Source: a virus (lineage: Duplodnaviria; Caudoviricetes). Taken from it: DNA of 60,218 bases. The DNA is taken from the IMG/VR virus record IMGVR_UViG_3300036985_003389, positions 1-60,218 of that record. The stretch is one strand, 5' to 3'. The notes under the pieces are model-generated. The model searched no databases and was not told the DNA's origin. It saw only the letters and a program-made list of their open reading frames with translations. Shown piece by piece: positions 3,668-38,905 of this stretch. Every line of letters starts with the position of its first letter. Position 1 is the stretch's first letter. The position numbers and the translations under genes are program-made.

Positions 3668-5203
3668 ATGCCCACAGCGAGATTACCCATGCGCAAACTT
3701 CGCGAGGTGCTGCGGCTGCAGGCGTCCGGGCTGCCGAGCCGGCAGATCGGCGCGAGCCTCGGCATCGGCCAGAGCACGATCATCGATTATCTGGGCCGTG
3801 CGCGGCGTGCCGGCCTCGCTTGGCCGCTGCCCGATGAGGTGAGCGACGAGGCACTGGAAGCCCGCCTGTTCCCGCCGCCGCTGGCGATCGGCAAGGAGCA
3901 GCGCCCGAAGCCCGATTGGGCAGCCATCCATCGCGAGCTGAAGCGGCCCGGCGTGACGCTGCAGCTGATCTGGGAGGAGCACCGTGCGGTCCATCCCAGC
4001 AGCTACGGCTACAGCCGCTTTTGCGAGCTGTATCAGGACTGGCGCAAGCGCCTGTCGCCAACGATGCGGCAGACGCACACGGCTGGCGACAAGCTGTTCG
4101 TCGACTACGCCGGCACCACGATCGACATCTTCGACGGCCTGACCGGCGAGGTGCGCAGCTGCCAGCTGTTCGTCGCGGCGCTCGGGGCCTCCAGCTACAC
4201 CTACGCCGAGGCCACCTGGACGCAGACGCTACCCGACTGGATCGGTGCCCACGTCCGGACCTTCGACTTCCTCGGTGGCGTCGCAGCGTTGACGGTGTCC
4301 GACAACCTGAAGTCCGGCATCACCAAGGCGTGCTTTTACGAGCCGGCCGTCAACCGCTCTTACGCCGAGATGGCCGCACATTACGAAACGGCGATCCTGC
4401 CGGCGCGCCCCTACAAACCGCGCGACAAGGCCAAGGTCGAGGTGGCCGTGCTGCTGGCGACGCGCTGGATCATCGCCAAGCTCAGGAACATGAAGTTCTT
4501 CTCGCTGGCCGAGCTGAACGCCGCGATCCGTGACTGCGTAACGGACCTGAACTCCCGCACGTCACGGCATCTGGGCGCCAGCCGTCTGGCCTTGTTCGAG
4601 CAGCTGGATCGCCCCGCCCTCAAAGCCCTGCCGGCGGAGGCCTACGTCTTCGCCGAATGGAAGGAGTGCCGCGTCGGGCTCGATTATCACGTCGAGGTCG
4701 GCAAGCATTACTACTCGGTGCCGTTCACGCTGCTGCGCGAGAAGTTGTGGGCCCGCAGCACGGCCCGGACCGTCGAGCTGTTCCATCGGGGCAAGCGGGT
4801 TGCGGCCCACGTGCGCTCGTCCTCGAACAGGAAGCCGACGACGGTTGGCGAGCACATGCCGTCCAGCCACCGGCGCTATGCGGAGTGGACACCCGAGCGC
4901 TTGAAGAGGCGAGCCGGCGAGATCGGACCCAGCACGGCCACCTTGGTCGAAGTCATCATCGCCGCGCGTACGCATCCCGAGCAGGGCTTCCGCTCGTCGA
5001 TCGGCATCATCGGGCTCGCCAAGCGCTATGGCCCGGAACGGCTGGAGGCCGCCTGCCTCCGCGCGCTCGAGATCGGCGCCCGCTCCTACACGAGCGTCGC
5101 CTCCATCCTGAAGAACAACCTGGATCGCACTCGGCCCGAACCCGCCACGGACGGGCCGGCGATAACGCACACCAACATCCGTGGCTCCACCTACTTCCAC
5201 TGA
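3668..5203 (+). CDS. istA: IS21 transposase IstA
   Basis: N-terminal HTH, YGYSRFCELY, FVDYAG, SDNLKSG, PRDKAKVE (DDE) and HYYSVP. Confidence 0.96.
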   Translation: MPTARLPMRKLREVLRLQASGLPSRQIGASLGIGQSTIIDYLGRARRAGLAWPLPDEVSDEALEARLFPPPLAIGKEQRPKPDWAAIHRELKRPGVTLQLIWEEHRAVHPSSYGYSRFCELYQDWRKRLSPTMRQTHTAGDKLFVDYAGTTIDIFDGLTGEVRSCQLFVAALGASSYTYAEATWTQTLPDWIGAHVRTFDFLGGVAALTVSDNLKSGITKACFYEPAVNRSYAEMAAHYETAILPARPYKPRDKAKVEVAVLLATRWIIAKLRNMKFFSLAELNAAIRDCVTDLNSRTSRHLGASRLALFEQLDRPALKALPAEAYVFAEWKECRVGLDYHVEVGKHYYSVPFTLLREKLWARSTARTVELFHRGKRVAAHVRSSSNRKPTTVGEHMPSSHRRYAEWTPERLKRRAGEIGPSTATLVEVIIAARTHPEQGFRSSIGIIGLAKRYGPERLEAACLRALEIGARSYTSVASILKNNLDRTRPEPATDGPAITHTNIRGSTYFH

Positions 5204-18041: not shown

Positions 18042-21000
18042 CTACTTCACGCGGATGCGGCGGCTTCCCGAGACGCGCTCAGAGCCAGCGTCGCGCCAGC
18101 CCTCAAGCATCTCGTCGCGCAGCACCGGCCAGCCCTCGACCGTCTCTTTCCAGTCTGGGATGCGCACCTTCTGGAAGATTGTCGTACCGGAGGAGCCGCG
18201 GCTGACGCGCAGATCGAACTGGTTGGCCAGTTCCATCGATATGCTGGCCAGCAAGTCGATGGCCGGCTGAGGATCACGCAGCTTGCGAGTCGCGAACTGC
18301 TTATGCCTCAGCGCGATCAAGGCGTTTTCTGTTTCGATCGCGGCAAGCGTGTTCAGCACGTCGCGCGCCGAGTCGGCCTGCTTGGGCGTGAGCTTGATCG
18401 GCACCGGTTCCGTCCGGCTGCTGCTGTCGACCAGTCGCTCGGTCAGGATGTCGCCTTGCAGGCCCTTGACCACGCGCAGCATGTCACGGGCCCGGTTCAG
18501 CGGGTGCGCGTTCTTCTTTCGGTTGCTGGTTTGCTGCTCGATGACCGCATAGGCGCGAGCCTCGTCGCTCTCCAGCGTGGCCAGATAGGCGTTGGCCTGT
18601 GCCCGCCCGTTCTGATCGACGAGGCCGAGCTTCAGGTAGTGCTCGTAACCCTTGGCGGCTCGGATATAACCGTCGCCCTGCTTTCCCATCACCTCATAGT
18701 AGGCGCCGTGCGCGTCAGAGGCCCGGTCAGGATCGATCTGGAAGCGCTGCACCATCGTGCCGATCAGCGGGTACTCGATGATATTGCCGGTGCGCGGACC
18801 GTTCGGGCGCGAAACATTCGATGTCTTTTGGATGTCCTTGCCCCAATAGCCGAGCCCAGATTGCAAGGCGTAGTCGATAATAGCCGGCGTCAACTCGAAC
18901 TTGTTCTGGAAGATAGCCGATCCGACCTTTTCGACAGGCTTCTTGGCCGTGCTTTCGTTGACCATGCGCGACAATGATATCGCGAAATGCGATGCATAGG
19001 CACCGAACTGTTCCTGCGGCGGCAATGCCTGCATGTGCTCCGAGATGATCGACCGCTTGGACAGGCTGTTGTAGTTGGCACCGATGTCGCGCCACATGCG
19101 CACGGCTTGGGGAACGAGTGGCGGAGACAGCGAATCCCACAGCCCTTCGTTCACCCGCTCCCAGAAATTCGGATCGCCCTTCGTTTGCGCATCGATGGCG
19201 GCCTCGATGAAGATCGACGGGATGGCCAGCTCGAACGCCTTGGGGATCTGATACCACTCGCCGTTGATCTTGACCGGCTGGGCCTTGTTCTTGATGCGGG
19301 CGTTGATGCGCCGGTACTCGTCGTCATCGCGATAGAGCGCCATGAAGCTCAGCAGCACGCCCGTATAGAGCACGAGATTGGTCCAGGCCATGGCCGACGT
19401 GGCCAGCGCTTTCTCGGAATCGGCCGACAGAGGTAGGCCGTTCTGCTGCTTGTAGAACGGGGCCAACAGTTCGCGAACCGAATCGACCCGAGCAGCGGCG
19501 TGCGCCAGAATTGCCGCCGTGACCGTGCCAGCGATGGATCCGGCGATGGGCCCGCCGACGAGCGTACCGAGCGCACCGGCCACAACGATGGCGCCACCCA
19601 TCTTCGCGCTCGACAGTTCCTTGCCGCGATCGGACAAGGCGAGGAACGTCCGTTGGGCCTTGTCGAGGCCCTGGATCTGAGCATTGAGAAACGGCACCAG
19701 CTTAGCTGCAACCAGCATGCGTGATCCGTGTCGGCCGAAGTCGATCAAGTCGCGGGCAACGAATGCTGCCTCTTGTGCGGCTTGGTAGGGCGTGAGCGAG
19801 GGATTGTAGGCAAGCGCCGCCTTGTATGCCTGAGTGAACACACCAAGGCGCGTGGCCGTTTCCGACATATCCGAGAGGTAAGCCAGATTCGCGAACCACT
19901 TTGATGGACTGCCGCTCTGATGCGTGGCCGCGCCGACCATCGCGCCAGACATGGCACCAGCCGGGCCCATCATCATGCCGCCGGCAATGCCACCAGCCGC
20001 CATACTCAGCCCCATGCTCAGCGGCTTGATTTGAAGCCCCTTGGCCTTCAGTGCCATCACGTCGACCTTGTCGCGCGCAGCGGACAGCGCAGCCACGTTC
20101 TGGCCACCCATCAGGCCGGCTACCTCCTGGTAGAGGCGTGCCATGTCGGTCTGGGCCACCTCGTGGTAGAGGCCGCGAGCCTGCGTGATGATCGGCCACG
20201 TGCTCGGGTGCATGATGCTGCCCGTCAAGGTCCAGGCAGACACCATATCGCGAAGAATGTTGGTCGCGATGAATGCCGGATGGGTCGTGACGCCCATGCG
20301 CAGTAGTGTCGCTGGCTTCGCAATCATGTCGATCATCAGCGACGACATTTCACGGCCAATGCCGTTCAACGTCTCGACCACGCCGGCTGCAAATTCCGGA
20401 TCGTTGATCCGGATCATCTTGCGATCGCCATTCTCCCAGTACGGGATCAGCAATGGACGTTTGGCGCCAAAGCTGCCGGGTGCCCACTTGAGCAGTAGCT
20501 GCGTATCGGTAAAGTCGTGTTCGATGCGCTTGATCATCTCATCGGCATCGTGCGCGTCATAGCCGAGCGACACGAGATGCTCGCGAAGCCTATCGAACTC
20601 GGCCGCCGACGCCTCGACGATCTCGGACTGATCGACCACCTCGGCAATGGCCGATCCGCCAGGCCCGACACGCTCGGCCAGGGCCTTGAGTGACAGGATC
20701 ACCTCGTTGTAGTGCGTCGCCGCGGCACGGTGGAACGTCTGGTCCATGATCGTCTCGATCGGATGGATGACGTTGCGATCCGAGCCGAGGAACCGCTTGT
20801 CCTTCGAGAAGCGCTTGATGCCAGCCCCGCCCGGCCCGGCCGCGTCAGCATCCACGTCGGAAATGTCGCGGGCGAATGGCACATACCAATCCTTGCGCGT
20901 GCGGCGGTAGTCGACCTCCGCTTGCGTCAGGCGGCCGGCCTGCTGGTCGTGGAGCACCTGCTGCCACTGGAAGTCATAGACCATCTGAGCCGCGTCTTTG

Positions 21001-24000
21001 AATGTCGGGTTCTCGCTCTCCAGCCGCTCGATGCGCTGCTCGTGGATGTCCTGGCTGATGGCGTGGGGGTTGCGCTGCATGCCGTTCTTCTTCGTGTCGG
21101 CAAGCTCGGCGCTCAGTTCCCTGGCATAGGTGTCGATCCCCTTCAGGCGGTTGGCTGCATCCTCGGCCTGGGCCTGTAGCTGTTCGAGCATATTGCCCTG
21201 TGCCGACTCGCCGATCTCCCGCTCGTCTCGATCCGCAGTCACGCTTTCCATGCGGCGGACGGCATCGGCCTGCTTGCGCTCCCACATCGCAATCTGGCGC
21301 TGCTTGCGGCTGATCAGAGATTGCCGCTCATCCGAGTTCATGGCCGTTGCCATCTCGGCGCCGGCCAGCTCGTCCTTGAGTTGGTCCAGGCGCTGGCCGA
21401 TGTCGGCAAGCTCTTTCTCGGCTGCGGATGCCGAGCGCTGCCGGTCCTGGACCAGCGTCGCATCGCCGATCTGGCGCGAGATCAGGCGCTCGACCCGATC
21501 GGAAAGCTTTCGCGACAGGTCGGCAAGCGCCGGCCGAACCGCGTCGATGTTAGAAAGCTTTCCGGCAATATCGGCGATCTTGTACTGCTTGGCCGTCCAG
21601 ACCTTCCATTCCTCGGCCGCGCGCCGGCTTTCCAGATAGACACCGAACGACTGGTGCTTGCCAAGCGACCACGTCTTGCCCATGGCCAAGCTCAACGCAT
21701 CATGCAGCGATGGCGAGCGAAACGACGTGTCGCGATAGTTGGGCATGCCGTCCTGAATCCAGCGCAGCCCGGTCTTGAAGCTGTCGCCGATCGAACGCAT
21801 GAGCTTGTACGGGTTTTCGTGCACGGCAAGTGAGATGGCCCGGCCCTTGTCGTCAGCCTTCAGATTCTCGTCGGCGCGCGCCAGGAATTTACTGACGGCC
21901 AGATACCACTGGTGGTTCTGATCGACGCCAGCCTCATAGACCGCATGCGAGAATCCACTGATGGTCCGTGATTGCCCGATGCTCTCGTAGAAGTCGCTGA
22001 ACCGCTTCGTAAAGCTGTTGTCAGCCTCGCTCTTGAGGTTGGCATGTGCCCGTTCCAGATCGGTGGCGCGAATGTAGTCCTGCCATTCCTGACGCGATTG
22101 CAGCAGGTGCAACCGCTCGATGGCCTCCAGGATTTCAGGTCCGTGACCGTCCAGGAAGTCCTCGAACTCGGCCAGAAAGTTCGGTGCCATTTGCTGCACG
22201 TGATCTGGGCGCAGGATGTAGTCGCGGAAGAAATTAGCGAAGCCTTCCGATAGCTGGTTGCCCTGCTGTGTCGACAGCGCCTCGAGTTCGGCCCGGTGCC
22301 GCATTTTGATGTGCGCCAGATCGGTGCCGAACAGACGCTCGATGTGGTGGCCGCCCTCATGCGCCACGTTGTCGATGTCGGTGGACAGGCGATAGCGCTG
22401 AGTGCCCGTCAGACGGTCGTACTGGCCGGCAACGAACTGGGTTGGCCGGAACGTCCTCGACTTCTTGCCGGTTTGTACACCCTCGACAGTCAAGCCATAG
22501 AGGCCCTGTGTCGCATTCATGCCGAGCACGTCCTTCAGATTGGCGATGATCTCGGTGATGGGCTTGACCTTACGGTCGCGACCCTTGCCGAACATGAACT
22601 GCGGCGCGGCACCTCCACCACTGCCACCGTTATCATCGGCAATGGCCTGCTCCAACCCGATGAACTGCCAATTGCCACGGCCATCCCTGGCCCAGCCGGT
22701 GGACAGGAATATCTCGATCTCGGGAGAGCCATTGCTGGCCATGTCACGAGCTACGGCAAACGTGTCAGGATCGGCCGTGGGCTCATTTGGCATGGCTGTC
22801 TGACTGTCGTCGAACGCTCTGATGGAGAACAGAGGCATTCCGCCGAGCAGCTTCGTGACCGTGTTGGCGTAGTCGACGACGCTTGCCATGCTAGAGCCCA
22901 GGCTGACGCCGAGGCCATCTTGATCGGCCCGCGCCACCAGTTCGCTCGCGCGACGCGCAGCACCGCGAACGACGCCGAACAGCACATCCATGCGTGACTG
23001 AGCCAGCGCCTCCGGTGGAATACCGCGACGCAACTCGATCAGGTACTGTAGCCTGTCCGGCTCGTTCGCTGCTTCCATCGCAGCAATCATCCTGTCCAGT
23101 TGTGCCGGACCAATCCAGGCACCATCGAACATCGGCCCGCCATTGACGTGATGGGCAACACTCTCGCCATTGCGCTTCTGCCAGTAGCGATAGGCATCCT
23201 CGCTCAGCCAGCCATTGGACGAGACGACCGTGCTCAGATCACGCTCGACCGCATCAAACAGGGCCGAGCTGACACCGCGACCGAGCATCTCGTCTTTCAC
23301 ACGGATGCTGGCCACTTCATGCCGACCCATCGCGTCTCGACTGAGCACGAGCGAAGCCACACCATCGCCAATGCTGTAGGTGCGCAGTTCCGTGCCATCC
23401 TCGTTCGTGCGGATGCTCACACTGCCGGACATGCCTGCTGCCGAGAATGGCTGCTGCGTGGCTGGGCGTTGAACGGACGAGCCGAATGAAAATGAAGGTG
23501 TGCCACCCCACTGCTCCAGCACTGCCTGTCCAGCCGGCACATACAGGGCCAGAACCTGCGCTCGCTGCTCGAGTTGTTCCGGCGTGGTCAGGGACTTGAT
23601 TCGATCACGCAGCACGCCATCGGTCATGCGTGCGCGAATACCGGACACCTCGGCCCGCTCGAACAGGTCGGCAAGATCATTGAAGCCGTACTTGTTCAGC
23701 ACCGTCTTGATGGCCTGCATGATCTCGACCATGCGAGACAGCAAGGCATCGATCGCCGCGCCATAGCGGGTGCCGGACGACCAGTCCTGCGCCATCCGAG
23801 CAACGCGCTCCTGGTTCAGGCGCTCGACCACGAAGTCACGCACATCGCGCATGTCATTCATGCCCATGCGCCGAGCCTGCAGATAATAGGTCGTAGCATA
23901 TTCTGGCAATGCGGGATGGGATGTACCATCGGGGCGCAATGTTCGGATCTTCTCGTCGATCCCGATCTTGGCCGCCCGGTCAAGCAAGGACTTCCATTCA

Positions 24001-27000
24001 GCCGCTGTGAACGCGCCTGCCTCACGCAAGGCATGCACCGTCTCGTGCCATGCGCCACCGCGCGCCGTGTCTGGTCCGTACGCCAGCGTAACAGCCAGCA
24101 AGCGGCTGCCGTGCTCGTAGAAGCCGACCGGCTCGCCCTGGTCCTGCTGAGCCAGATGATCCGCCACACGGATTGCCACGTCGCGCGGGGCCATGCGCGC
24201 TATCTCAGCCTCGATGTCAGCGACGATCGCGGCCTTGCGCTCAGCGTAGCCAGGCCGGAATGAGCCGAGATTGCCGATCTGCGATTCCGCGGCTAGGCGA
24301 AAGAGGGGCTGGCCTTCCTCCATGACCGAACGCTTGACCGCCTCGGTCAGCGGGAATAGCGTGAAGCCCTTGCCAAGGCCAGTCTTGCCGCTTGGGCTGT
24401 CAAGAGTCTCGATCCTCTCGGGGGAAGGAGATGCCTTGTCGATCTTGGCGATCAAATTGCGAAGGTTCTTCGGGACAATGCCTTCGATCGCCGAGTTTTG
24501 AGCAACAAGCCGCTTAGCCGCCTTGAGGCCGGCTGCGTGCTCTTCCGCGGAAACACCGGAGGCGGCACCCTTCTCCAGTCTTTCAAGTTCACTCTTGTAA
24601 ACTTTCAGTTGTTTCGGCCTCTCGGCTCCGCCATAGAAGAACCGCATGCCAGCGTCGTCACCCGGATTATAGGACAGCACCGTATCGCCACTCGGGATGG
24701 CAATGTAGTCAGCCCCTGCCTCACTGGCCTGACGAATGGCACGGCGAAGGACAGTGTTAACCCACTGGTCAGTGGTGTTGACAAGGGGATTGCCGGGGGA
24801 ACCCGCTTCGGCAGTGGCAAGTTCAGCGCGAAGAAGACCTTGCTCAGAAATGGCGACATTCAAGTCAGTTGGCAGGCCGGTCGGATCGAGTTTTTTGATA
24901 CGGGCCAGGAAGCTCCGCACGTGGCCGGGAGGAATATCCTCGTATCGCGTTGCGCCAACGCTGTTTGTGAGGTTAGTCCAATCCATGCGCGACCTGTGGT
25001 CGGCGGGCAAGTCGGCAAGGTACTCGTCAATGTACGGCTTCGCCTGCGCCCGAAGATCGCCGACGCGATCATCTGCTGCTTTGGCCTTCGCCTTTAACTC
25101 AGCGATCTTCGCCTCGTCCCTGACGCCGCCATCGCGCAGATTCTGGCCCCAATCAGACTGAATCTGGTCAATCGTGAACACTGGCTTTCCACGATGCGTC
25201 GTCATAGACGTCATCATGTGGCCGATGATGTTGGGCTCGGGGAAATGACCAGATTGGAAGTTGCTGGCCTTGATCTCCTTCAATTCAGAAAGAAGTGCGG
25301 CATTCTCGCTTCTCGCTGCACGCAACGGTGCAAAGTCGGGGGTTGCCCGCAGATCCTTCGCCTGCTCGCTTATGTCATAAATGACGCGCTGATTTTCTTT
25401 CATACGCGCTTCAATTTCCTGCGCGCGTCGAGATTCCGGCAGATGCAGGACTGTCTCTCTGTATGTGGGGTTGGAAGAGTCGAGAGAGTGACGGGCCCAC
25501 TTGGTCGGGCCTGCTGCGCCAGACGGAACGGTGCTCGTTTCCGTGTAGGCTCCGCCACCGACAAGATCATTCATCATGTCGTCGTCGACTAAACCTCCGC
25601 CCAAGTCTTGCGTGTCGGTGGTTCCGTCGATCTGACCGCCATACTGCACTTCCTTCACCTGGACTCTATTCTCTTCCAGGAATTTGACGATTTCGGATTT
25701 AGTGACTTGTTTCAACGACGCCCGGCGGGGAGGAGACGCAGTGCGATCACCCTGGGGCTTCCATTCCCCAACAAAGGTGTCGCTCATGCGATCTTGCCCA
25801 GGGACAAGGGGGCGCATTTCGAGCGTCTCGATCACACCCTCTTTTGCGGGGGCCAGCAACTCACCAAGTTTTGTGGCTTCGATCTCTGCGTCCTTGACGC
25901 CAGCAGATTTGAGCTGTGCCAGCATTTGCTCTGGCGTGCCCTTGGCTTGCTTGAGCCCACGCGCTGCTTCCAGCGCCTTGCTGTAGTAGCCGAGTGCATC
26001 AAGATCGCGACGCATGGACTGGCCTGTGCCAGCATCCGGCGAGGATGGGCCACCGAACATGAACTGAGGTGTGCTGGTGTCGTCAGTGACTGGCGCCTGA
26101 GATGCGCCGGCAGTCAGCTGGCTAAGATCGGCCTCGGCTTTGGCGATCTCGGCCTGGGCTACTTCTTCTTGGGAGCCTTGTGCGGCTCCGCTTCGTTCAC
26201 CGCCGCGAGCAACCACTGGTCGTCGATCCACTCCATCCACTCGGGGGTTCCCCGAGGTGGCTCCGGCCCGAGGCCATAGTCCCTCGATTTCCAGTCCAGG
26301 AAGCCCGGCGACTTCCCACCGGTCGGCTCGCTCGTTGAAGGTGACTTTGGCGGTTTCATTGACCCTCCGATCCTCCTCTAGTATAGCAAGAAGCTTCGGA
26401 ATGTTCGAGTCTGTTAGGTCGAATTCCGTCGTCGGAACTGCACGGCCGGTCTTCCTCCAGCGCATGACTGCGCGTTCCATCGCCAGCGCCTTTGGCACAG
26501 ACACATGAACCACCGTGATCTGATAGCCATTGGCCGAGAACTGATCGACCAATTTATTGATACTGCTGCTGGAAGATCCAAGCTTTTCAACGATTATATT
26601 GCCGCCAGCGCTCACCATGCGCGCGACAGCATCCTTCATCATATTCGAGGCTTCTTCGTGCACGCCTCCGGAATTTTTGCCGTCGTCATATTCCGGGATA
26701 AGCAGCTTGGCATCGTCGCCGACCATGTGGGCCGCGCCGTGCCGTTCACCAACCTTCTTGGCAATGGTCGATTTGCCTGACCCTGGCATTCCCAGAAGAA
26801 TGAACAGCTTGCGCTCGTTCTTCTGCGCGCCTCCGGGAATCTTCTCGATCGCATCGTCAATCAGGAATTGAACGGCGTTGTCGTATCCAACGATTTCGCC
26901 CTGCGGCGTGTTGTAGGTACGCGCCGCCTTCCATTCTGGCGAGCCATAGCCTGGCTGTTTTTCCGTGTCCCGGCTCATGTCGGCAATGGTGGCCCGCGTC

Positions 27001-30000
27001 CATTCCTCGCTGTTCAGCGTCTGACGAATCGCGGCTTCGCGCTCGACATAGTCGGCCTCGGTGAACTTTTCCGGCGCCATCAATGTCCGATAGTAGGCAA
27101 GGAATTTCTGCCACTCCTGGCCGAGATAGGCTTGACCGCCGGCACTCGGATCGACAGGAGCCTTCTGCGAGAATGCGAAGTATTCCTTGTTGGCCCGATA
27201 GCGCGGCAACGACAGGCCGGCGCGCATCAGCGGAATCGCAGCCAAAGCCTTCGATGTCTTGCCGACACCATCCGCCCAGACATGATCGGTCATGTTGGTG
27301 CGCCACTCGATCCAGGCTGCGGTCTCCACCGGATCGGCATTCTCATCGTCGAGGCGCGCGGCAAGCTCCTCAGAGAATTGCTTGTAGGCAGCAGGCAAGT
27401 CTGCCACGCGCGTGTATGGGAACTTGTCGCTGTCGTCCTCGCGATAGAGAGCACCTTCCTTCAGAATGCCGCGATTGATCGCCAGTGCGATCTTGTCCAA
27501 TTCCTTGGCAAGTTCCGACGGCTTCAGAAGGGCCATCTGCTCGCGGCGCCGGTAGATGTCGGAGATCACACCCTGGAAATTCTCGACTGCGGAACGGGCG
27601 GCGAGATCCCCAGTCAGGCCTTCGGCCATCTGCCCGGCTTTGCCAACTGAGGCGCTGATGTCGACGATGCCGGCCGCCGTCCTGGACGTGGCCTTGAGAT
27701 TGGCCATGCCCTGTTCGACGTAAGCAGCCTCTGCCTTCGCATCATCGGGTGACTGCGTCTTGCCGAACTTGAGCACGCCCTCTAAGCGCTGCAGGCGCCT
27801 TGTTTTGCGGCGCAGTTCATCTGCACGCGGGAACGGTGTTGGCTGTGCTGCCTTGTCCAGGCCCGGCAGTTCCGTTTCCCAGCGCGCTATCCTGCCGCGT
27901 TGCATCTCGATGTGCTCGGGGATGGCGGCCACCATGCGCTCCCAGCGACGCACAAGCTGCACCGGATCGCTGGTCTCCGTGATCAGGAACGAGTCCATGG
28001 GGCTGTAGTCACGAACACCGACGATCTCGGGCTTGACCAGGATGCCATCGCTGGTGCGCTTGACGATCGCCTTCATCTGGAAGCCGGAGATGGTGCCGAT
28101 CTCGCTATCAGATCCGTAACCACCCCAGATTCTCGACCCAACGCCATGCAGATAGCCGCGGATCGCCTCGCCCGCCTTCTTGCGCTCCTTGAACCCGACG
28201 GGCCCGTCCGTGCCAACATCCAGTGTCACGCTGAACTTGTCGCCGGCCAGGTCCGTGACCTTCAGCGCATCTTCTTCATATGGGGCAAGATCAGCCTTGC
28301 TCTTTTCATTCATCGACCGGATCGTCGCGGCATTGGCTGCGGCGGCCTTGTGGCTCCGAACGTGGCCGCGTTCGGCCACCTGGAGCTGGCGCACCTCGCG
28401 CGACAACTCGGCATGCTCCATAATCAGCGGATTGCCGGTTGCTGCAGCTTTGAGCTCAGCCGCTTCTGGCAACGGCGGGTTGATATCCTCAGCATTTCGC
28501 ACGCCGAGCGCACCAGCGAACATTTGGCCAATAAAGATGGATTTGCGGTCAAGCAGCTGCCACCGGTAGGCATCGAACGAGCGCTTGGTGATGTAGCGCA
28601 GAATGCGAACTTCCGGGTTCTTGTTGCCCTGCCTGAGAATTCGGCCGTCGCGCTGCTCAACATCGGCTGGCTTCCACGGGGCATCGAGGTGGTGCATGGC
28701 GATCAACTGGCGCTGGACGTTGGTGCCAACGCCCATCTTGCCGGTCGATCCGAACAGCACACGCACCTCGCCGTTGCGCACCCTCTCGAACAGCTTGGCC
28801 TTCTTGTCATCGGTGTTCGCGTCGTGAATGAACGCGATCTGATCGGCGGGAATGCCCTTCTCGATCAGTCGGACCTTCATGTCCTCATAGAGATTGAACT
28901 TGCCGACCAGCATGGCCTTTGCTTCAACCTCGGCCTCGTCAACCTCGGCTTCAACCTCGGCATCCTCACTCGTCCCGCGCGCCTCATCGAGCAACTCGCG
29001 ACGGATTACATCGGCGATGTCAGTATCGACTGTGGCGCCAGATGTTCCAGTCGCTGGCGTGACCGTCGAACGCCTACCCCTTGAGCCAGGAACGCCCATG
29101 TCTAAAAAGACCAGCTGCGCCTTGTTGGGCGCGGCCGGATCGACGTTGCCGTCCTTCCAGATGTCGAAGATATTGCTGACCGCTCGACCGATCTTGCCAG
29201 TCGGATTGAACGGCGCGGTTGGATCTACCAAGCGCATGTCGGTTGCGAGCTGAATGCCCTTGGTGAACAGGGAAATGAACGGCGCACCCTCGCCCGGCTT
29301 CTTTCCCTTGGCCTCCTCCATCTCCTCGATCAGGCCTTGGATGGCCGATTCTTCGGTTTCGGATAGATCAACCTCGACAGCTTCGATTTTGCCCCCCTTC
29401 AGATTTGGGCGTGGCAGCTTCAGCATGTCAGCGGTCTGGGTATCCATGACCTCGCCGACGAGGCTCATCAGTTCTGGCATGTTGACGAACTGAGAGAACG
29501 ATTCCGTATCGACCCAATCGCGGGAATTCGATGACAGCTCGGATTTGGTGACGATCTTGCCGAACGTGCCGGCCCACGAATCGAATTGATGCAGGCCATA
29601 CTTGCGCAGCATTGGCCCCTGCAGATAGCGCTGCATCGTGTAAAGCTCGGCCATCGTGTTGGATACTAGCGTACCCGTCATGAACACAGCTGACCGGCCC
29701 GGCCGACTCTTTTCCAGATGCCCCATCTTCACATAGAGATCAGTGGCACGCTTAGACTCGCCCTTGTTCGAAATGCCCCTCACGCGACCATGACGAGTGG
29801 CGAAGTGCAGTGATTTGAACGTGTGGGCCTCGTCGACGAACATGAAATCGACACCCAGCTCCTCAAACGTTACGCCGTCGTCCTTCGACTCCTCGTCAGT
29901 CAATCTTTTCAGCCTGTTCTCAAGGCGTTTCTTGGCTTTTTCCAGATCCTTGACGGTCGGCGAATCTTCGCCCTCGTCTTTGGCTGCCTGATCTTTGGCG

Positions 30001-33000
30001 TCGAGCAAGTCCTGAATCTGCAGCTCGTAGTATTCGCGATACGTATCAGGCGACATGCCGACACGCGTGAACGCCGAGTGCGTGATGATGATGCCGTCCC
30101 ACGTGTCGGAAGCGACCTTGGCCGCAAACTCCCGGCGCCGATCACGGGACATCTGATCCTTGGTTGCAACCAGCAGCTTGGCATTCGGATAGGCTTGGTA
30201 GAACTCCGTCGAGAACTGCTCCAGCATGTGGTTCGGAACGACGAACATCGGGCGCTGCACCATGCCCAGACGCTTCATCTCCATGGATGCCATGATCGCC
30301 GTCCAGGTCTTGCCGGACCCGACAACGTGATTGAACAGCGTGTTGCCGCGCTGGATTACGCGCCAGATTGCATTGACGCGATGTGGCAGGAGATTGATCG
30401 TGCCTGTCGTGCCGTCGGGGAACGTGACGACACGGGCAAGCCCTGGAAATGTCAGATGCGAACCATCGTACTTCTGCGGCACGATGCGATTGAAGGTGTG
30501 ATTGTAAAGCTTTTCGAGTCGATCGGCCCGCTGCATGTCTTCCCATGCCCAGCCGTCAACGCCAAGATCCGAGTTGCCTGAAAACAAGTCTCGAATGGCA
30601 TCGATCTTAGCACGCGCCTCGGCTTCTGCCTCGGGGACGCGCACGCGGGTTTCGCCTTCCTCGCTCTGGACTGTATCTGTAATCACGACCGTATTGGAAT
30701 TGAGCGCATAATCCAGTATCTGGACAAGATTTTTTCGCGCTGTTCCGTAAGTATCGTTTGCCGCCAACGGGAAGTGACCAGACAGAACATTCCAGCGCGC
30801 ATTGGCCTCGTTGTAGACGAGCTCGACGCGGTGGCCTCCCAGCTTTTCCTCAAGGAATTTTTCATAGACCTCAGCTGGCACCCATGGGGCGCCAAACGGA
30901 ATCGTGATCTCAGACCTCGTGAGCTGTTCCGGCTGCACCTTTTCGAGAGATTCGACGTTGCGTCGATACCGCATAGGATCAAGCTCGGCTGCGATGCGCG
31001 CTTGGTCCAGTTTTTCGACGACATCGCCAGCCAGATACTCGGCATTGGTCTGCCAGATCTCGCCAGCCGGGTTCTCAAACACCTGATCGTCGAGGGACGC
31101 AATGGCCTCAGCTTGGTTGAGCCCGAGGCGCTTAGCGATCAACGGCATATCAACCTTGCCGGTCTCGTTCAGAGAAACGGCCAGGGCATCCGACGGCCCC
31201 GTGATGGCCGGTGTCTGGTAGGAGCCGACGATATCCTGATTGAAGATTGCCGCCTTCTTCGCGGTATCGGACTTCTCGTCGTAGACCTCGACCGCAGCCA
31301 CTTTGAAAGCGTCTGGATCTTCCTGGAACAGCGACAATGTCGGCTTGCGCCGGATGACAACCTCTTTGCCATCCTTGCGCGTCTGCTTGGTCACGATCGT
31401 GCGATTGATCGGCCCGTACCTCTCGACAAAATCATCATAGGCCTTGCCGAGCGCCTCCCGGTAGTCGTCCATACCAGCGCGATCGCCGCGCGCCTGCTTG
31501 GCCAGCATGTCATTGACGATGCTACGCAGGCCTATGAACCCGCGAACCTTGGCAGCAGCTTCCTTGCCGAAATTCTGTGGCTCGCCAACACCCTGCACCT
31601 TCCGATAGAGCGTGCCGTCCTTTTCGTAGAACGAGCCTTCCTTGATGCCGTCCGTCTCGGTATCAACATCCTGGCGCGGCTGATCGACGGCGGCAACGCC
31701 ACGCGGGATCATGGAGCCGGCCGGAATGTTGTCGGCGATGGCGTTGACGACCTTCATGCCGAGGCCGTCCGTAGAGCCGATCAGCACCGGCTCGCCCTTG
31801 CCGTACATCTTGCCAATCAGGCGCATCTTGCCGAGCATCATGTCGGGATGGGCCGCGAAGTAACCGTTGATGTCGGTCGCACCTTCCGGCGTCTTCACTT
31901 CAGACAGCGTGCGCCATTCCGGATTGCGATCTGGCTCGCCCTCCATCTTCTTGCGGAAGAAGATGATATCGGTGGTCACGTCCGTTCCGGCATTGGCCTT
32001 GAACGCGCCCTGGTTGCCGCCCGGCAAACGCACGGCGCCGAGGAACGTACCGCGCCTGTCCATCTCGCGCCGCGCCATCGTGCCGGCCTTGTCGAGCGTG
32101 CCGCTCGACGTGATGAAGGCAACGATGCCACCAGGCCGAACCTTGTCGAGCCCCTTGATGAAAAAATAATCGTGTAGCGTGAACTTGTTCTTGTAAGTCG
32201 GATCGTATGGACCTTCAGCGGCGAACGGCACATTCGAGATGGCCAGATCAAAATGATTGTCCGGCCACTTTTGCGTCTCGAAACCAGCAACGCGCACGTC
32301 GGCTGCCCCGTAGAGCGCCTTCGTGATCTCACCGGACAGGATATCGAGTTCGACCGCAGTCCACGCCGTATCGGCCCGCAGCTTGCCCGGCATGAGCCCA
32401 ATGAAGTGACCGATGCCAGCGGCCGGTTCGATCACGCGACCGCCCTTGAAACCCATGTGCTCCAAAGCGTCCCACATGGCCGTAATGACCTCAGGGGACG
32501 TGTAATGTGCGTTCGTGGTCGATGCTCGTGCTGCCGCATATTCGGCCGGCGTCAGCAAGTCTTTCAGCGCGTTGCGCTCGGCCTTCCATTCCGGCTTGTG
32601 ATCGGCGAACACGTCCTGGCTGAAAGCACCCCAACCCACATATTTGACGAGCTTGGCCTTTTCCTCGACCGTAGCCGGGCGCTTTTCTTCCTGCAGAACG
32701 CGAAGGATGCGAATCGCATCGATATTGCCGCGGACCTTGGCCTTGGGCCCGCCCTTGCCGATCTGGTCGGCCGGCGTGATCTGATAGTTTAGCGTCTCCC
32801 GGTCAGCACGAGCCAGCTCCTGCCGCTCGATCTCGGCGGCAACCTGATCGGCAACGGCTGCCTGTTGCTCGTCACTCAGGCTCGCGGAAGCGGGAGGTGG
32901 ATTAGCTCCGAGTTCACGATCTCCCGCACCTGTTCCGGTATTGCCTCCGTCACCTTCACCCTCTCCAGGTAGTCCGTCGGCAGGTCCGGATTGTCCATCA

Positions 33001-35981: not shown

Positions 35982-38351
35982 CTACTTCCCGACAGCCTGC
36001 TTGAGCACACGTGCGGTACTGCCAGCGCCGAACTCGCGGTCGAAGACGGCACGCCGCTTCTCGGGATCGGCCATCAACCACTTCATGTGGGCATCGTTCG
36101 GCTGCCGGCCAGCTGGCATGGCCCGGCCCTTCACCGCGTCATCGCGCGACATCGACGGCGTGGCGAAAAGAGCGAGGCGCGATGCGTCGACCGCTGCTGT
36201 TCCTGGCGCTTGCTCGCCGAACCAGATCCGGTCCGTGATCTCGGATTGCTTGAGCCGTCGCACATCATCCGCCGTGACTGGCTGGCCCTTGACGGCCTTG
36301 AGAATCGTATCGCTGGCCACGTCCTTATACTTGTCGCCAGTCAGCTTGTAGCCGATGGCCTCGCGAAACGCAGTTGGGCCATGCACCGGGCCATAAATTT
36401 TCAGTGCCCGGTCGGCACCGGCCCGCAAGTGCTTCTCGATCTGGGCATCATCGAGCCCCTTCGCATCCGGCATTTGAAGGATGCCGCTAGCTTCCGCCCG
36501 CGTGATGATCTTTCGCTCATACGAGGGAATGCCGATCTTCTCCTGCAGGGCCAGCCGTGCCTCAACCAAGCGCTGATGCGCGGCTTCCGGCGTGATCCGA
36601 CCCTTATCCTTGGCGATCTCGTTGCGTGCCGCGATCATCTCGGGCTCGCGCTCCAAGGTCAGCGCCAGATCGCGCTTGCGGGCCTCCTCCGTTCGCTTCC
36701 AGGCTCGTTCGGCCTTTTCCATCACGCGCGTATTGCGCCTGAAGGTTTCCGAGCCCTCGTCGGCATCCGGCAGGTTCTTCGTGATGTGCTCGATCGCCTG
36801 ATCCTGATTCATGCGGCGCAACGGCAGCACCACGCGGGCCTCGAGCCGAGCTTCCTCAACCTGTTCCTGGAGCTTCGTGTGCTGGTTCTTGGTAATCACC
36901 TGACCGGCCCGGTCAAGCGAAGTGCGACCGTCGGTGCCCGCTACCGGCTCCTTGCCCTGGCGGATCAGTTCGAGATCGTTCGCCGTCTCGGATTGCAGCT
37001 TGTTGCGCAACGCCACCCGCGCCACGTTCAGCAGCTTCTGGCGCTCGACGAACGGCAAGTGCCGGAACGGGGCCTGATCGGTGAACTGGTAGAGCTCGAC
37101 CGCCGCTTGCCCTTCCTCGCCAGTTGTGCCGGGCCCTGCCTCGCCAACGGCCAGCAACTCGCCGCGCTTGACCTCGCCCATACCAGCGAAGGACGTGATA
37201 CCTCGCCGCTCTATCGGCGTTTCCTTTGACGGTTTGATCGACGGATCGACCTCGAAGTGCATGGGGTCTGGCTTCGAGAAATCACCACCCCATTTCAAGC
37301 CGTGCTTTGCTGCGATCTCGCGCAACTTGTCCGCACCGATCTGTCCTGCAATCGCGCCCATCCCGCCATCTCGCGGGTTGTCCGTCCAGTTCACATCGAT
37401 GGCACGTCCAAACGAGTGCTCGCTCGGCTTGTTCGTGCCGGCGATGTTGCGCTTGGCGAAGCCGCCCGATTGATCACCTTTGACATCCAGGCCCTCGGCT
37501 TCCAAATCCGCCAGCAGCCCCGCGAAGCGATCGGAATGCTCGCCATTGACACGAAAGCGGGCGCCAGATGCCGTCGACAAAACGGTCATGTCGCCAGATT
37601 CTTCGCGCTTGATTTCCGACGTAACCGGCGCGTCCTGATCGCCCTTGGGCCGCATCTGTAAGCGCTGAATGGCGCGTTCCGGGTCTTTCTCGACCTCGAC
37701 CCGAGCCGCGATCTGCTCGAGCTGGGCCGGCAACTTGCGCATGATCGAATCGCGCTTGCCGATGGGAATACGTGACGAGCCAATCAGCTGCCGGGCCGCG
37801 GCGATGTGTTCCTGCACGCGATCTGGGGCTTCCTGAACCCTCCCCTCGAAGTCCAGCAGGCTCTTTTGAACGTCCTCGATGTGGAAACGATCACGCTCGT
37901 CAAGCTCGGCGTGCCACGCCTTAGTGTGAAACCGCTCGCCCCACTCCAGCATCTTGCTGTCGAGCTTCTTCAGCGTGCCAGGGCCGTAGTTCCGCTCCTT
38001 GGCAGCTGCGAAGGTATCGCGCGCCAGCGCATCATAGCCGCCCTTGAACTGATCGGCGAAGCCATCTCCGCCCGGCGTCATGTTGCGCTTTTCTTCGTCC
38101 AGCTTGCGCTCGGTATCGCGCTGGAAGCTGATCAGAGTCTTGGTGACCTCGTAGTCGTCAGCCTCGTTCTGGGCTGCCAACATGCCGCCGAAGATCTGCT
38201 CGCCAGCCTTGGCTATCACCGGTCCAGAACGGGCGATATCCCGCCCCGGCTCCTCGATGTTGATCCGGTCCTGCTTGTCGAACGCAATGACGTTCCGGCC
38301 AGGACTCGGCAGCTGCGTTTCGAGCGCGAAGGACGTCGGGATCTTGGCCAT
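35982..38351 (-). CDS. Internal virion protein with M15-family peptidoglycan peptidase domain
   Basis: RNIAGTNKPSEHSFGRAIDVN...GLKWGGDF..PDPMHFE (~37250-37470) within a helical gp15-position protein. Confidence 0.85.
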   Translation of the reverse strand: MAKIPTSFALETQLPSPGRNVIAFDKQDRINIEEPGRDIARSGPVIAKAGEQIFGGMLAAQNEADDYEVTKTLISFQRDTERKLDEEKRNMTPGGDGFADQFKGGYDALARDTFAAAKERNYGPGTLKKLDSKMLEWGERFHTKAWHAELDERDRFHIEDVQKSLLDFEGRVQEAPDRVQEHIAAARQLIGSSRIPIGKRDSIMRKLPAQLEQIAARVEVEKDPERAIQRLQMRPKGDQDAPVTSEIKREESGDMTVLSTASGARFRVNGEHSDRFAGLLADLEAEGLDVKGDQSGGFAKRNIAGTNKPSEHSFGRAIDVNWTDNPRDGGMGAIAGQIGADKLREIAAKHGLKWGGDFSKPDPMHFEVDPSIKPSKETPIERRGITSFAGMGEVKRGELLAVGEAGPGTTGEEGQAAVELYQFTDQAPFRHLPFVERQKLLNVARVALRNKLQSETANDLELIRQGKEPVAGTDGRTSLDRAGQVITKNQHTKLQEQVEEARLEARVVLPLRRMNQDQAIEHITKNLPDADEGSETFRRNTRVMEKAERAWKRTEEARKRDLALTLEREPEMIAARNEIAKDKGRITPEAAHQRLVEARLALQEKIGIPSYERKIITRAEASGILQMPDAKGLDDAQIEKHLRAGADRALKIYGPVHGPTAFREAIGYKLTGDKYKDVASDTILKAVKGQPVTADDVRRLKQSEITDRIWFGEQAPGTAAVDASRLALFATPSMSRDDAVKGRAMPAGRQPNDAHMKWLMADPEKRRAVFDREFGAGSTARVLKQAVGK

Positions 38352-38905
38352 CAGCCGTATTTCACCGTTGTTCCAGACTTCCACGAGGCAGCCGTCGGCA
38401 TGTCATAAGCATACTTCGGTGTTGTCCCGACCCCGCCCTTGTAGGCTGATCCCGCCATCGATCCAACGCCGGACAGGATTGTCGAAGACATGGCAATGCC
38501 TTGCCCGCTCGCACCCACTTTCGACGCATAGCGCTTGTTCACGGCCTGAGCGTCGAGGCTGCCTGCTGCTTCCTCACCCTCCCAGAGCTTCAGGTTGGAA
38601 TTGTACTCGCCGCGCGCCGCGGTATTTCCGAGAATCTCCGAAACAGACCCTTCCAAGCCGCCACCGGATGCCGCCGCCCGTGCGCGCTGATCACCCATCA
38701 GGCGCTCAGCCCGCTCGCGCTCAGCCTCCGCACGTCGCTGCGCCGACGCTCTCTGCTGTCCCGCCTGTGTTTCCAGCGCCGCCGCATCATGCTCGGCAAT
38801 CGTCTGGCTGGCATCGTTCTTCTTCGATTCACCCAGCACACTCATGGCGGTACCGGCCGCCGTCGTAGCCAGCTGCATGAGAATCAGCGGCTCAACGCCC
38901 GACAT
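38351..38905 (-). CDS. Internal virion protein (T7 gp14-like position)
   Basis: QRARAAASGGGLEGS motif, hydrophobic ends and synteny. Confidence 0.75.
   Translation of the reverse strand: MSGVEPLILMQLATTAAGTAMSVLGESKKNDASQTIAEHDAAALETQAGQQRASAQRRAEAERERAERLMGDQRARAAASGGGLEGSVSEILGNTAARGEYNSNLKLWEGEEAAGSLDAQAVNKRYASKVGASGQGIAMSSTILSGVGSMAGSAYKGGVGTTPKYAYDMPTAASWKSGTTVKYG

Follow-up and report, generated by a model that had tools for sequence, protein, structure and literature searches.

Background

The question raised by this locus is whether a short open reading frame (ORF), lying out of frame within a giant viral gene, is a gene in its own right, and whether its product could restrain the kinase domain at whose coding end it lies. 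The DNA analyzed here, referred to below as the window, is a stretch of 60,218 nucleotides (nt) with a guanine-cytosine (GC) content of ~61%, comprising positions 1 to 60,218 of the IMG/VR virus record IMGVR_UViG_3300036985_003389 (Duplodnaviria; Caudoviricetes). An initial annotation had proposed that the short ORF encodes an internal antitoxin for a zeta-toxin-like domain of the giant protein. The elements on which the question turns are as follows, with residues of the giant protein given in amino acids (aa).

18042-35678, minus strand: giant polyvalent gene, the main frame that hosts the nested ORFs; an uninterrupted ORF of 5878 codons (ORF list and translation)
26277-26891, minus strand: zeta-toxin-like P-loop kinase domain, ~aa 2930-3134; Pfam Zeta_toxin at aa 2952-3110, E 3.6e-23
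26363-26378, minus strand: two Shine-Dalgarno (SD)-like words, GAGGAGGA at 26378-26371 and GGAGGG at 26368-26363
26159-26359, minus strand: putative nested +1-frame gene, P0001, 66 aa plus TAG; ATG at 26359-26357, TAG at 26161-26159

Comparison of related sequences indicates that the 66-codon ORF is very probably a real gene under selection. To the whole reading, in which its product serves as a guard or antitoxin of the kinase, we assign a probability of about 0.5.

Results and discussion

Position, start signals and composition of the nested ORF

On the minus strand the nested ORF is preceded by GAGGAGGATCGGAGGGTCA-ATG, in which GGAGGG is followed by TCA and then by the start codon. Both SD-like words sit within the main-frame codons for E-E-D-R-R, and the ATG falls inside the main-frame codons AAT-GAA (N3107-E3108), placing the ORF in the +1 frame of the 5878-aa ORF, on the same strand and wholly inside 18042-35678. 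Its SD signal is the strongest among the ORF starts examined in the window. The signals, the ATG and the 66 codons were found on the minus strand as the initial annotation had them, and the overlap that it described with the end of the zeta-like domain and the following linker was confirmed: the Pfam Zeta_toxin match ends at aa 3110, the predicted fold extends to ~aa 3134, and the predicted local distance difference test score (pLDDT) lies below 50 from aa 3137. The same +1 offset and the same AAT-G start context, also claimed earlier, recur in a TnpV-like ORF at 32876-33160 on the minus strand. Two segments of the overlap are distinguished in the analyses below.

26139-26270, minus strand: main-frame linker read across the nested gene, ~aa 3137-3180, rich in G, R, P and A; pLDDT below 50, model residues 208-251
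26219-26293, minus strand: core of the nested protein, residues 23-47 (W-K-S-R-D-Y-G-L-G-P-E-P-P-R-G-T-P-E-W-M-E-W-I-D-D); nested frame better conserved

The base composition singles out the same region. Along the giant ORF the GC content by codon position is 0.64/0.45/0.72, and the relation between positions 1 and 3 is inverted in two regions alone, aa 814-978 (z 5.1) and aa 3094-3212 (z 3.3), with z at most 2.1 elsewhere. Read in its own frame, the 66-aa ORF has a coding-like composition of 0.58/0.53/0.80, and such a composition, with ~0.80 at position 3, was found in two of the 20 comparable +1 ORFs, the other being the TnpV-like ORF (0.65/0.32/0.81). It is this composition together with the comparison with relatives, and not the window alone, that gives the nested ORF its significance.

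Conservation of the ORF and of its start among relatives

A protein search identified five giant relatives with the same kinase subfamily (P0003-P0007, 41-64% identity), in which the kinase module lies at aa 835-1265 rather than at aa 2930 as in the window protein; the differing positions indicate that the module moves as a unit. Two of them, P0004 and P0005, were observed to contain two zeta-like domains each (~aa 870 and ~aa 4800). At the DNA level, alignment-based scans (1 + 1 + 4) yielded six loci, L023 to L028, for comparison with the window, among which L025, L026 and L027 are three contigs of one assembly and represent one lineage. Their identity to the window is ~60% for L025/L026/L027, 49% for L028, 42% for L023 and 44% for L024.

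All seven loci carry an ATG-started +1 ORF of 60-82 aa at the 3' end of the zeta-like domain, wholly within an open main frame on the same strand. The +1 products of L025-L028 align with that of the window over the whole length and share with it the core motif DYG(L/I)GPEPP(R/K)(G/Y)(S/T)xEW(M/F)EW(I/V)E. The nested family is therefore recognizable in five loci from three lineages (the window; L025-L027; L028), and in all five it lies at the kinase module. The start is kept as well. In the window, L025-L028 and L023 the ATG occupies the homologous position, and GGAGGA or AGGAGG precedes it by 7 nt in L025/L026/L027, 5 nt in L028 and 6 nt in L023. Since the main-frame residues beneath these words vary (EEDRR, DGGLA, NGGRA, QEDV, SEEAV), the SD word appears to be kept at the nucleotide level. 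A survey of zeta-containing polyvalent genes for a conserved ribosome-binding site and ORF in the +1 frame had been proposed with the initial annotation; in the loci compared here the ORF is present in 7/7 and the SD word in every one but L024, where it is weak.

The ORFs of L023 and L024 share with the family a short EW-rich stretch alone, and they are retained here as ORFs present at the same place rather than as family homologues. Two further observations concern L023. It is the most distant relative, and its +1 ORF is the least like the nested family; and its zeta-like domain (~2660-2690, main frame) reads S-D-I-P-K where the others have an invariant D-D-A-K at the catalytic Asp pair, a difference which suggests that this kinase may be inactive or may work differently.

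Searches beyond these loci returned little. Named phage and plasmid records gave distant zeta domains alone (26-39% identity), none of which covered the linker, and tblastn with the family member P0022 gave no match in the named phage or plasmid collections. An IMG/VR scan with aa 2900-3300 detected 22 loci matching the next domain (aa 3167 onward) alone, with a zeta domain upstream in 0; scans with the zeta part alone gave no match in viral or genome contigs, and a scan of IMG/VR for the peptide family gave 23 pattern matches, of which 0 were confirmed. Among 401 surveyed genomes of the order of G001, the nested family was present in G001 itself only, and it was not found in the other genomes searched. 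Part of the window is contained in 17 public sequencing runs. Contigs were read from four of them, all DNA and short; these are identical over 26033-26285, leave 26316-26366 uncovered, and include a lone variant contig downstream of the nested stop, so that they offer no population variation within the nested ORF.

Selection on the two frames

The pattern of differences between loci is not the same in the zeta domain and in the nested region. At main-frame codon positions 1/2/3, pairwise differences amount to 0.32/0.23/0.53 in the former and to 0.34/0.32/0.34 in the latter. At the third position they drop from 108/177 in the zeta domain to 23/65 in the nested region for the window and L025 (Fisher P 0.0005), and from 61/176 to 12/65 for L025 and L027 (P 0.018); the drop for the window and L028, from 105/174 to 27/58, is not significant (P 0.09).

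Within the 25-codon core, the ratio of nonsynonymous to synonymous differences (pN/pS) lies at 0.34-0.93 for the nested frame and at 0.81-2.41 for the main frame (8 pairs giving both ratios). In the core alignment, codons for G, P, P and P vary at nested third positions alone, thereby altering main-frame residues, and the identity between the window and L028 is 14/24 in the nested frame against 7/24 in the main frame. A resampling test, in which the main-frame proteins were fixed, the codons redrawn and the nested identity scored, gave null values of ~5-8 of 24-25, with observed nested identities of 13-18 and P at most 0.0013 in 6/6 pairs; for the window and L028 the null had a mean of 5.2 and a maximum of 12 in 4000 trials. 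Three control +1 ORFs that also have tblastn matches (at aa 2332, 3215 and 3607) behaved differently, their main-frame identity being far above that of the alternative frame (P 0.02-0.52).

The reverse resampling, with the nested protein fixed, left the main frame open in 0.02-0.12 of trials per locus. As the main frame is nevertheless open in 7/7 loci, the continuity of the giant ORF is also selected, and both frames are maintained. By these comparisons the nested region is a case of true dual coding, each frame being under purifying selection. The final two beta-strands of the kinase are encoded across the first 22 nested codons, and the extent of the folded kinase, to ~aa 3134, followed by the disordered linker, corresponds to the parts of the overlap in which each frame dominates.

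The nested peptide family

A profile of six nested peptides, searched against 1.84 billion proteins, gave 11 matches, all of 58-144 aa and none to a long protein, which indicates that no giant protein in that library contains the motif as an in-frame domain. In a collection of 5.8 billion, in which proteins of 31-226 aa were searched, 22 members of 54-144 aa were found, none with a Pfam domain and nearly all singletons on contigs of 0.7-5 kb. A 27-row alignment built with 20 of these 22 members shows a common start M, the core and a short basic tail at the end in most rows. The motif occurs twice in tandem in P0015 and P0025. No known family was found for the nested peptide in Pfam (P0001, E up to 0.01), NCBIfam or PHROGs, the ESM Atlas gave no usable match, and a likeness to TnpV (PF14198), tried as a candidate, was rejected (hhalign probability 0.1, no Pfam match). 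From their sequences, the nested peptides are a new small-protein family. In the AlphaFold model of the 66-aa peptide the N-terminus is disordered and the remainder comprises a short turn, an extended stretch rich in Pro and a helix at residues 39-56, with a mean pLDDT of 66 and a value of 85 over residues 31-50 (AlphaFold2, AF2).

The kinase domain and the predicted complex

In the AF2 model of the kinase, residues 1 to ~205 of 251 (aa 3134) are folded. A Foldseek search of this model ranked zeta first (1gvn/3q8x, E 3e-11), then PezT (2p5t) and AvrRxo1 (4z8u), and then polynucleotide kinases, with values for zeta/PezT ranging to 1e-8. The zeta, PezT and AvrRxo1 structures were each solved together with a small partner protein. 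Residues K40, D60, E102, R144 and R150 of the domain align to K46, D67, E116, R158 and R171 of zeta and are invariant in 6/6 relatives.

The complex prediction suggested with the initial annotation was carried out for the kinase domain and the peptide, and it supports the predicted binding. The interaction prediction score from aligned errors (ipSAE) was 0.80 (runs 0.81/0.80/0.78), the best of three controls scoring 0.00; the pLDDT of the partner was at least 69, and the runs agreed in at least 77% of contacts. The mark by which this score was judged was reached by 58/80 solved complexes and 2/110 mismatched pairs, counts that apply here only approximately, since shallow alignments of our own were used. 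On the peptide side the predicted interface comprises residues 20-61, chiefly helix 45-61, and on the domain side residues 27, 58, 75-96, 101-122 and 151-156; it borders the residues aligned to zeta D67, E116 and R171 without including them. We consider it rather likely that the peptide binds the kinase domain.

Pfam Epsilon_antitox (PF08998), the sole family used in looking for a free-standing antitoxin, had no match in the window, and the control genomes were silent for it too. The proposal of an internal antitoxin stands in part: there is very probably a selected nested gene with a modeled binding partner in the kinase, and the product is no relative of epsilon or PezA.

A TnpV-like companion and other +1 ORFs

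A second nested gene in the same giant ORF, which serves as a precedent for the 66-aa gene, was recognized by its family.

32876-33160, minus strand: companion nested +1 gene, TnpV-like, 94 aa, P0014; Pfam TnpV PF14198

The match to TnpV is strong (E 2.9e-15, 56.6 bits against a cut-off of 27). The ORF sits in a G/D/P-rich linker before a methyltransferase domain, and its ATG is preceded by the word GGAGAGGG. The relative L034 has a homologue nested at the corresponding position (1474-1809, minus strand). Identity is 63/92 in the nested frame, a value reached in 0/2000 resamplings, and 45/93 in the main frame.

A third +1 ORF (24605-24859, minus strand, 84 aa, at aa 3607) was considered as a gene and rejected, its main-frame identity being much higher. 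It has a weak GC anomaly (z ~2) and resampling P values of 0.02-0.04, and its tblastn matches in L001-L004 show identities from 39/49 to 46/61 in the main frame against 24/48 to 28/60 in the nested frame. It is probably a by-product of main-frame conservation.

A proposed mechanism

In the proposed mechanism, the main frame would be read through the last two beta-strands of the kinase and on into the disordered G/R/P/A-rich linker of the 5878-aa virion protein, while the +1 frame would be entered from its own SD word and ATG, ~9.3 kb inside the giant mRNA, by internal initiation on what would be a giant late transcript. The +1 product would be a protein of ~66 aa in which the N-terminus is disordered, DYGxGPEPPR forms a segment rich in Pro, and EWxEWIE... 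belongs to a Trp-rich helix. Made beside the nascent kinase from the same stretch of mRNA, this small protein is predicted to bind the kinase domain, lying across helix 74-95, strand 97-104 and helix 108-120, near the catalytic Asp, the Glu and the second Arg. The bound peptide could silence the kinase while virions are built, as a non-covalent guard or antitoxin, and a guard held in this way could come off during packaging or ejection, so that the kinase would reach the next host unrestrained.

The initial annotation had gone further, to a polyvalent gene that may encode guards for its separate domains in linker frames. This broader idea is upheld to the extent that two conserved nested genes are present, the 66-aa and the TnpV-like one, and that the 66-aa gene travels with the zeta-like module. 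The partner set here would consist of the kinase guard at the zeta-like domain and the TnpV-like protein before the methyltransferase. That giant polyvalent virion genes in general carry small partner genes in alternative frames of their disordered linkers, each beside the domain it serves, with products made from the shared mRNA close to the nascent domain, bound to it non-covalently and shed as the giant protein is threaded into or out of the capsid, is a speculative extension that we regard as rather unlikely.

Points against the reading and alternative explanations

The observations that weigh against the guard reading concern either the function of the peptide or the gene itself. As to function, the sequence profile of the kinase is equally near the RNA-repair kinase Pnkp1 and zeta (both E 1.6e-9), and the complex score may partly reflect memory of solved complexes of zeta-like kinases with small partners. 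The footprint of epsilon on zeta, which according to PMC4963854 covers aa 8-25, 43-58, 67-75 and 149-165, maps to ~3-19, 37-52, 60-68 and 135-151 of the domain here; that of the peptide does not coincide with it, and the known inhibitory mode is not reproduced. A 15-member profile of the peptides gave no match against the PDB below E 0.5, and with it no likeness to any solved chain.

As to the gene, the giant ORF contains 20 +1 ORFs with an ATG and at least 60 aa, and 45% of its +1 codons lie in stop-free runs of at least 66. The probability that the +1 frame is open, given the main-frame protein, is 0.47 for the window and 0.47-0.79 across loci; openness of the +1 frame, being expected, was discarded as evidence of a gene. 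One of the words GGAGG, AGGAG and GAGGA occurs 4-12 nt upstream at 2.6% of positions in the giant ORF, by which ~0.5 of the 20 ORFs would bear an SD word by chance, and one, the nested 66-aa ORF, does; from the window alone, the nested ORF with its SD word is not beyond chance. Support at the DNA level amounts to three lineages. The +1 ORFs of L023 and L024 were undetected by a family hidden Markov model (HMM) built without them (E up to 10), their products show a weak likeness to each other (12/39), and the L024 start has TGGAGA alone, a weak SD. Constraint in the nested frame is limited to ~25-30 codons. Among the closer pairs, the first 22 codons are dominated by the main frame (pN/pS 0.10-0.50 in the main and 0.35-1.92 in the nested frame), and there neither frame dominates in the three pairs with L028 (0.95-1.39 and 0.75-0.79), and over the last 19 codons there is clear constraint in neither frame. 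Finally, in P0017 and P0024 the nested-frame peptide continues into residues that the relatives encode in the main frame, such as ...EEGAPEAPLVSQ, found in L025; these may be natural variants with a split giant ORF and the peptide joined to its downstream part, or products of indel or assembly errors on short contigs.

The explanation that best survives beside the guard reading holds that the nested gene is real and translated and that its product is not an inhibitor. The product could activate the kinase or set its specificity as a subunit, could act as a chaperone in the folding or packaging of the module, or could be a small protein of unrelated function that has only the DNA in common with it; the gene could also be a relic, bridged as neighboring genes fused into one giant ORF. 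This explanation draws on the same evidence for a real gene as the guard reading does, and it would accommodate the footprint unlike that of epsilon, a kinase sequence as near to that of a multi-protein RNA-repair complex (Pnkp1/Rnl/Hen1, 4xrp) as to zeta, and a TnpV-like companion that by its Pfam name is not of an antitoxin family. Set against it, the fold search places zeta, PezT and AvrRxo1 above polynucleotide kinases, the predicted contacts flank the residues aligned to D67, E116 and R171 and would be expected to hinder substrate access, and the gene lies at the kinase module in 5/5 recognizable loci even though the position of the module varies (aa 2930; aa 835-1265). We regard such a role as possible, if on the unlikely side.

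Much less probable is that the nested frame is entered by slippage, in which ribosomes translating the giant ORF would shift to +1 near the end of the kinase and stop at the TAG at 26159-26161, giving a shorter polyvalent protein with a peptide tail. SD-like words within genes stimulate +1 slippage in prfB, and the first 22 nested codons lack nested-frame constraint, as if unread in that frame. The ATG, however, is kept at the homologous place in 6 loci, although T-ending codons make up 45-47% of D/N/Y codons, and a distance of 5-7 nt from the SD word is suitable for initiation. In 6/7 loci the nested frame has a stop 1-6 codons before the ATG, including five of the six that keep the homologous ATG, the sixth being L023 with a stop 15 codons before; in L025 and L027 it sits inside the spacer between SD and ATG. 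Stops so close before the ATG fit initiation and not slippage from the main frame. The codon alignment contains no common slippery or stop-codon site, and most gene-caller proteins in the family alignment begin at the same M, though gene callers have a bias toward such starts.

That there is no second gene at all, the frame being open by chance in a 61% GC gene and its conservation a by-product of the main frame, is very improbable, for, in spite of the 20 comparable +1 ORFs, the by-product tblastn matches that other +1 ORFs also give in relatives, and database proteins that are gene-caller output on contigs of 0.7-15 kb, the core is better conserved in the nested frame with synonymous changes at nested third positions, the by-product control ORFs behave differently, the SD word is kept under changing main-frame residues, and the GC pattern is coding-like.

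The giant gene and its neighborhood

The product of 5878 aa has Pfam matches to ResIII, Helicase_C, Zeta_toxin, LPD23 and LPD38, and on the basis of this set it belongs to the polyvalent proteins as Iyer et al. 2017 (PMC5512222, main text) use the term. According to PHROGs, the neighbors of the giant gene encode a tail protein, a portal, a terminase and a tail fibre, which constitute a virion/tail module in a podovirus-like phage record. Genes of the tail, portal, terminase and tail-fibre type are the usual surroundings of ejected internal virion proteins. Just upstream of the giant gene, an 800-aa ORF (35982-38384, minus strand) has a weak likeness to endolysins in one stretch (phrog_2649, E 2.2e-6), as would suit an internal virion protein that is ejected and bears a cell-wall hydrolase; it supports the idea of a block of ejected proteins. 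A 511-aa ORF (3668-5203, plus strand) matches a PHROGs transposase family (phrog_1157, E 3.8e-82) and may be an insertion element, since its strand is opposite to that of most genes of the phage record.

The main-frame motif P-Q-F-M-F-G was observed twice, at 26052-26066 (aa 3205) and at 22587-22601 (aa 4360), both on the minus strand. Each copy is preceded by a G/S/T-rich linker and begins the next module, and P0006 has a similar R-Q-M-M-F where the homologous module begins. The motif could be a processing or docking site between modules.

Significance and comparison with known systems

Polyvalent proteins are considered to enter a new host together with the DNA and to serve to disarm it. If the guard reading is true, the weapon would be harmless to the cell that produces it and would become armed on reaching the next host, with effector and immunity in two frames of one gene. 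The main text of PMC5512222 mentions a zeta-like kinase, for which it proposes cell-wall weakening, and does not address how producer cells tolerate toxic polyvalent domains; a conserved small gene in a linker frame, with a product predicted to bind the kinase, offers a testable answer. The same text does not use the words 'overlapping', 'frameshift' or 'TnpV' and does not describe nested genes in linkers, and in the open literature searched no account of such an arrangement was found. Gene callers miss real genes in giant ORFs, two in this one, both in the +1 frame, and the overlap described here is a natural case of dual coding in which each frame is dominant in a different part.

Among known systems, epsilon/zeta and PezA/PezT (1gvn, 3q8x, 2p5t) are alike in the zeta-fold P-loop kinase, with its Walker A Lys, catalytic Asp, Glu and two Arg, and in a small, partly helical partner from the same transcription unit, here a modeled binder. 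They differ in that the nested peptide has no sequence likeness to epsilon or PezA (Pfam, PDB profile), in that its gene lies inside the kinase ORF at the 3' end in another frame whereas epsilon and PezA are encoded by separate upstream genes, and in that the kinase is no free toxin but forms a single domain within a virion protein of 5878 aa. The predicted footprint also differs from that of epsilon (PMC4963854).

In the AvrRxo1-ORF1/ORF2 system (4z8q, 4z8u), the kinase fold is among the best structural matches and the partner shows no sequence likeness to the peptide. The AvrRxo1 partner gene lies downstream, unlike the nested partner gene, which is embedded out of frame. The system is described as a toxin-antitoxin component in PMC4938570. 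EzeT of E. coli, as presented in PMC10532202, is a zeta toxin whose own polypeptide includes an antitoxin domain acting in cis, and is alike in having toxin and neutralizer in one gene; there the antitoxin is an in-frame N-terminal domain, whereas here it would be a separate chain from the +1 frame.

The polyvalent proteins of PMC5512222, by its main text, are alike in being giant multidomain proteins with methylase, helicase and LPD domains and a zeta-toxin-like kinase. Rz1 within Rz of lambda, as covered in PMC6139136 and PMC5295617, is alike in being a small gene with its own start in another frame of a larger gene, the two products being partners; the host gene here is instead a polyvalent gene of 17.6 kb, the overlap covers the end of a domain and a disordered linker, and the function is not lysis. 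By analogy, the arrangement would work like a toxin-antitoxin pair of the zeta class and is built like the embedded phage gene Rz1 in Rz.

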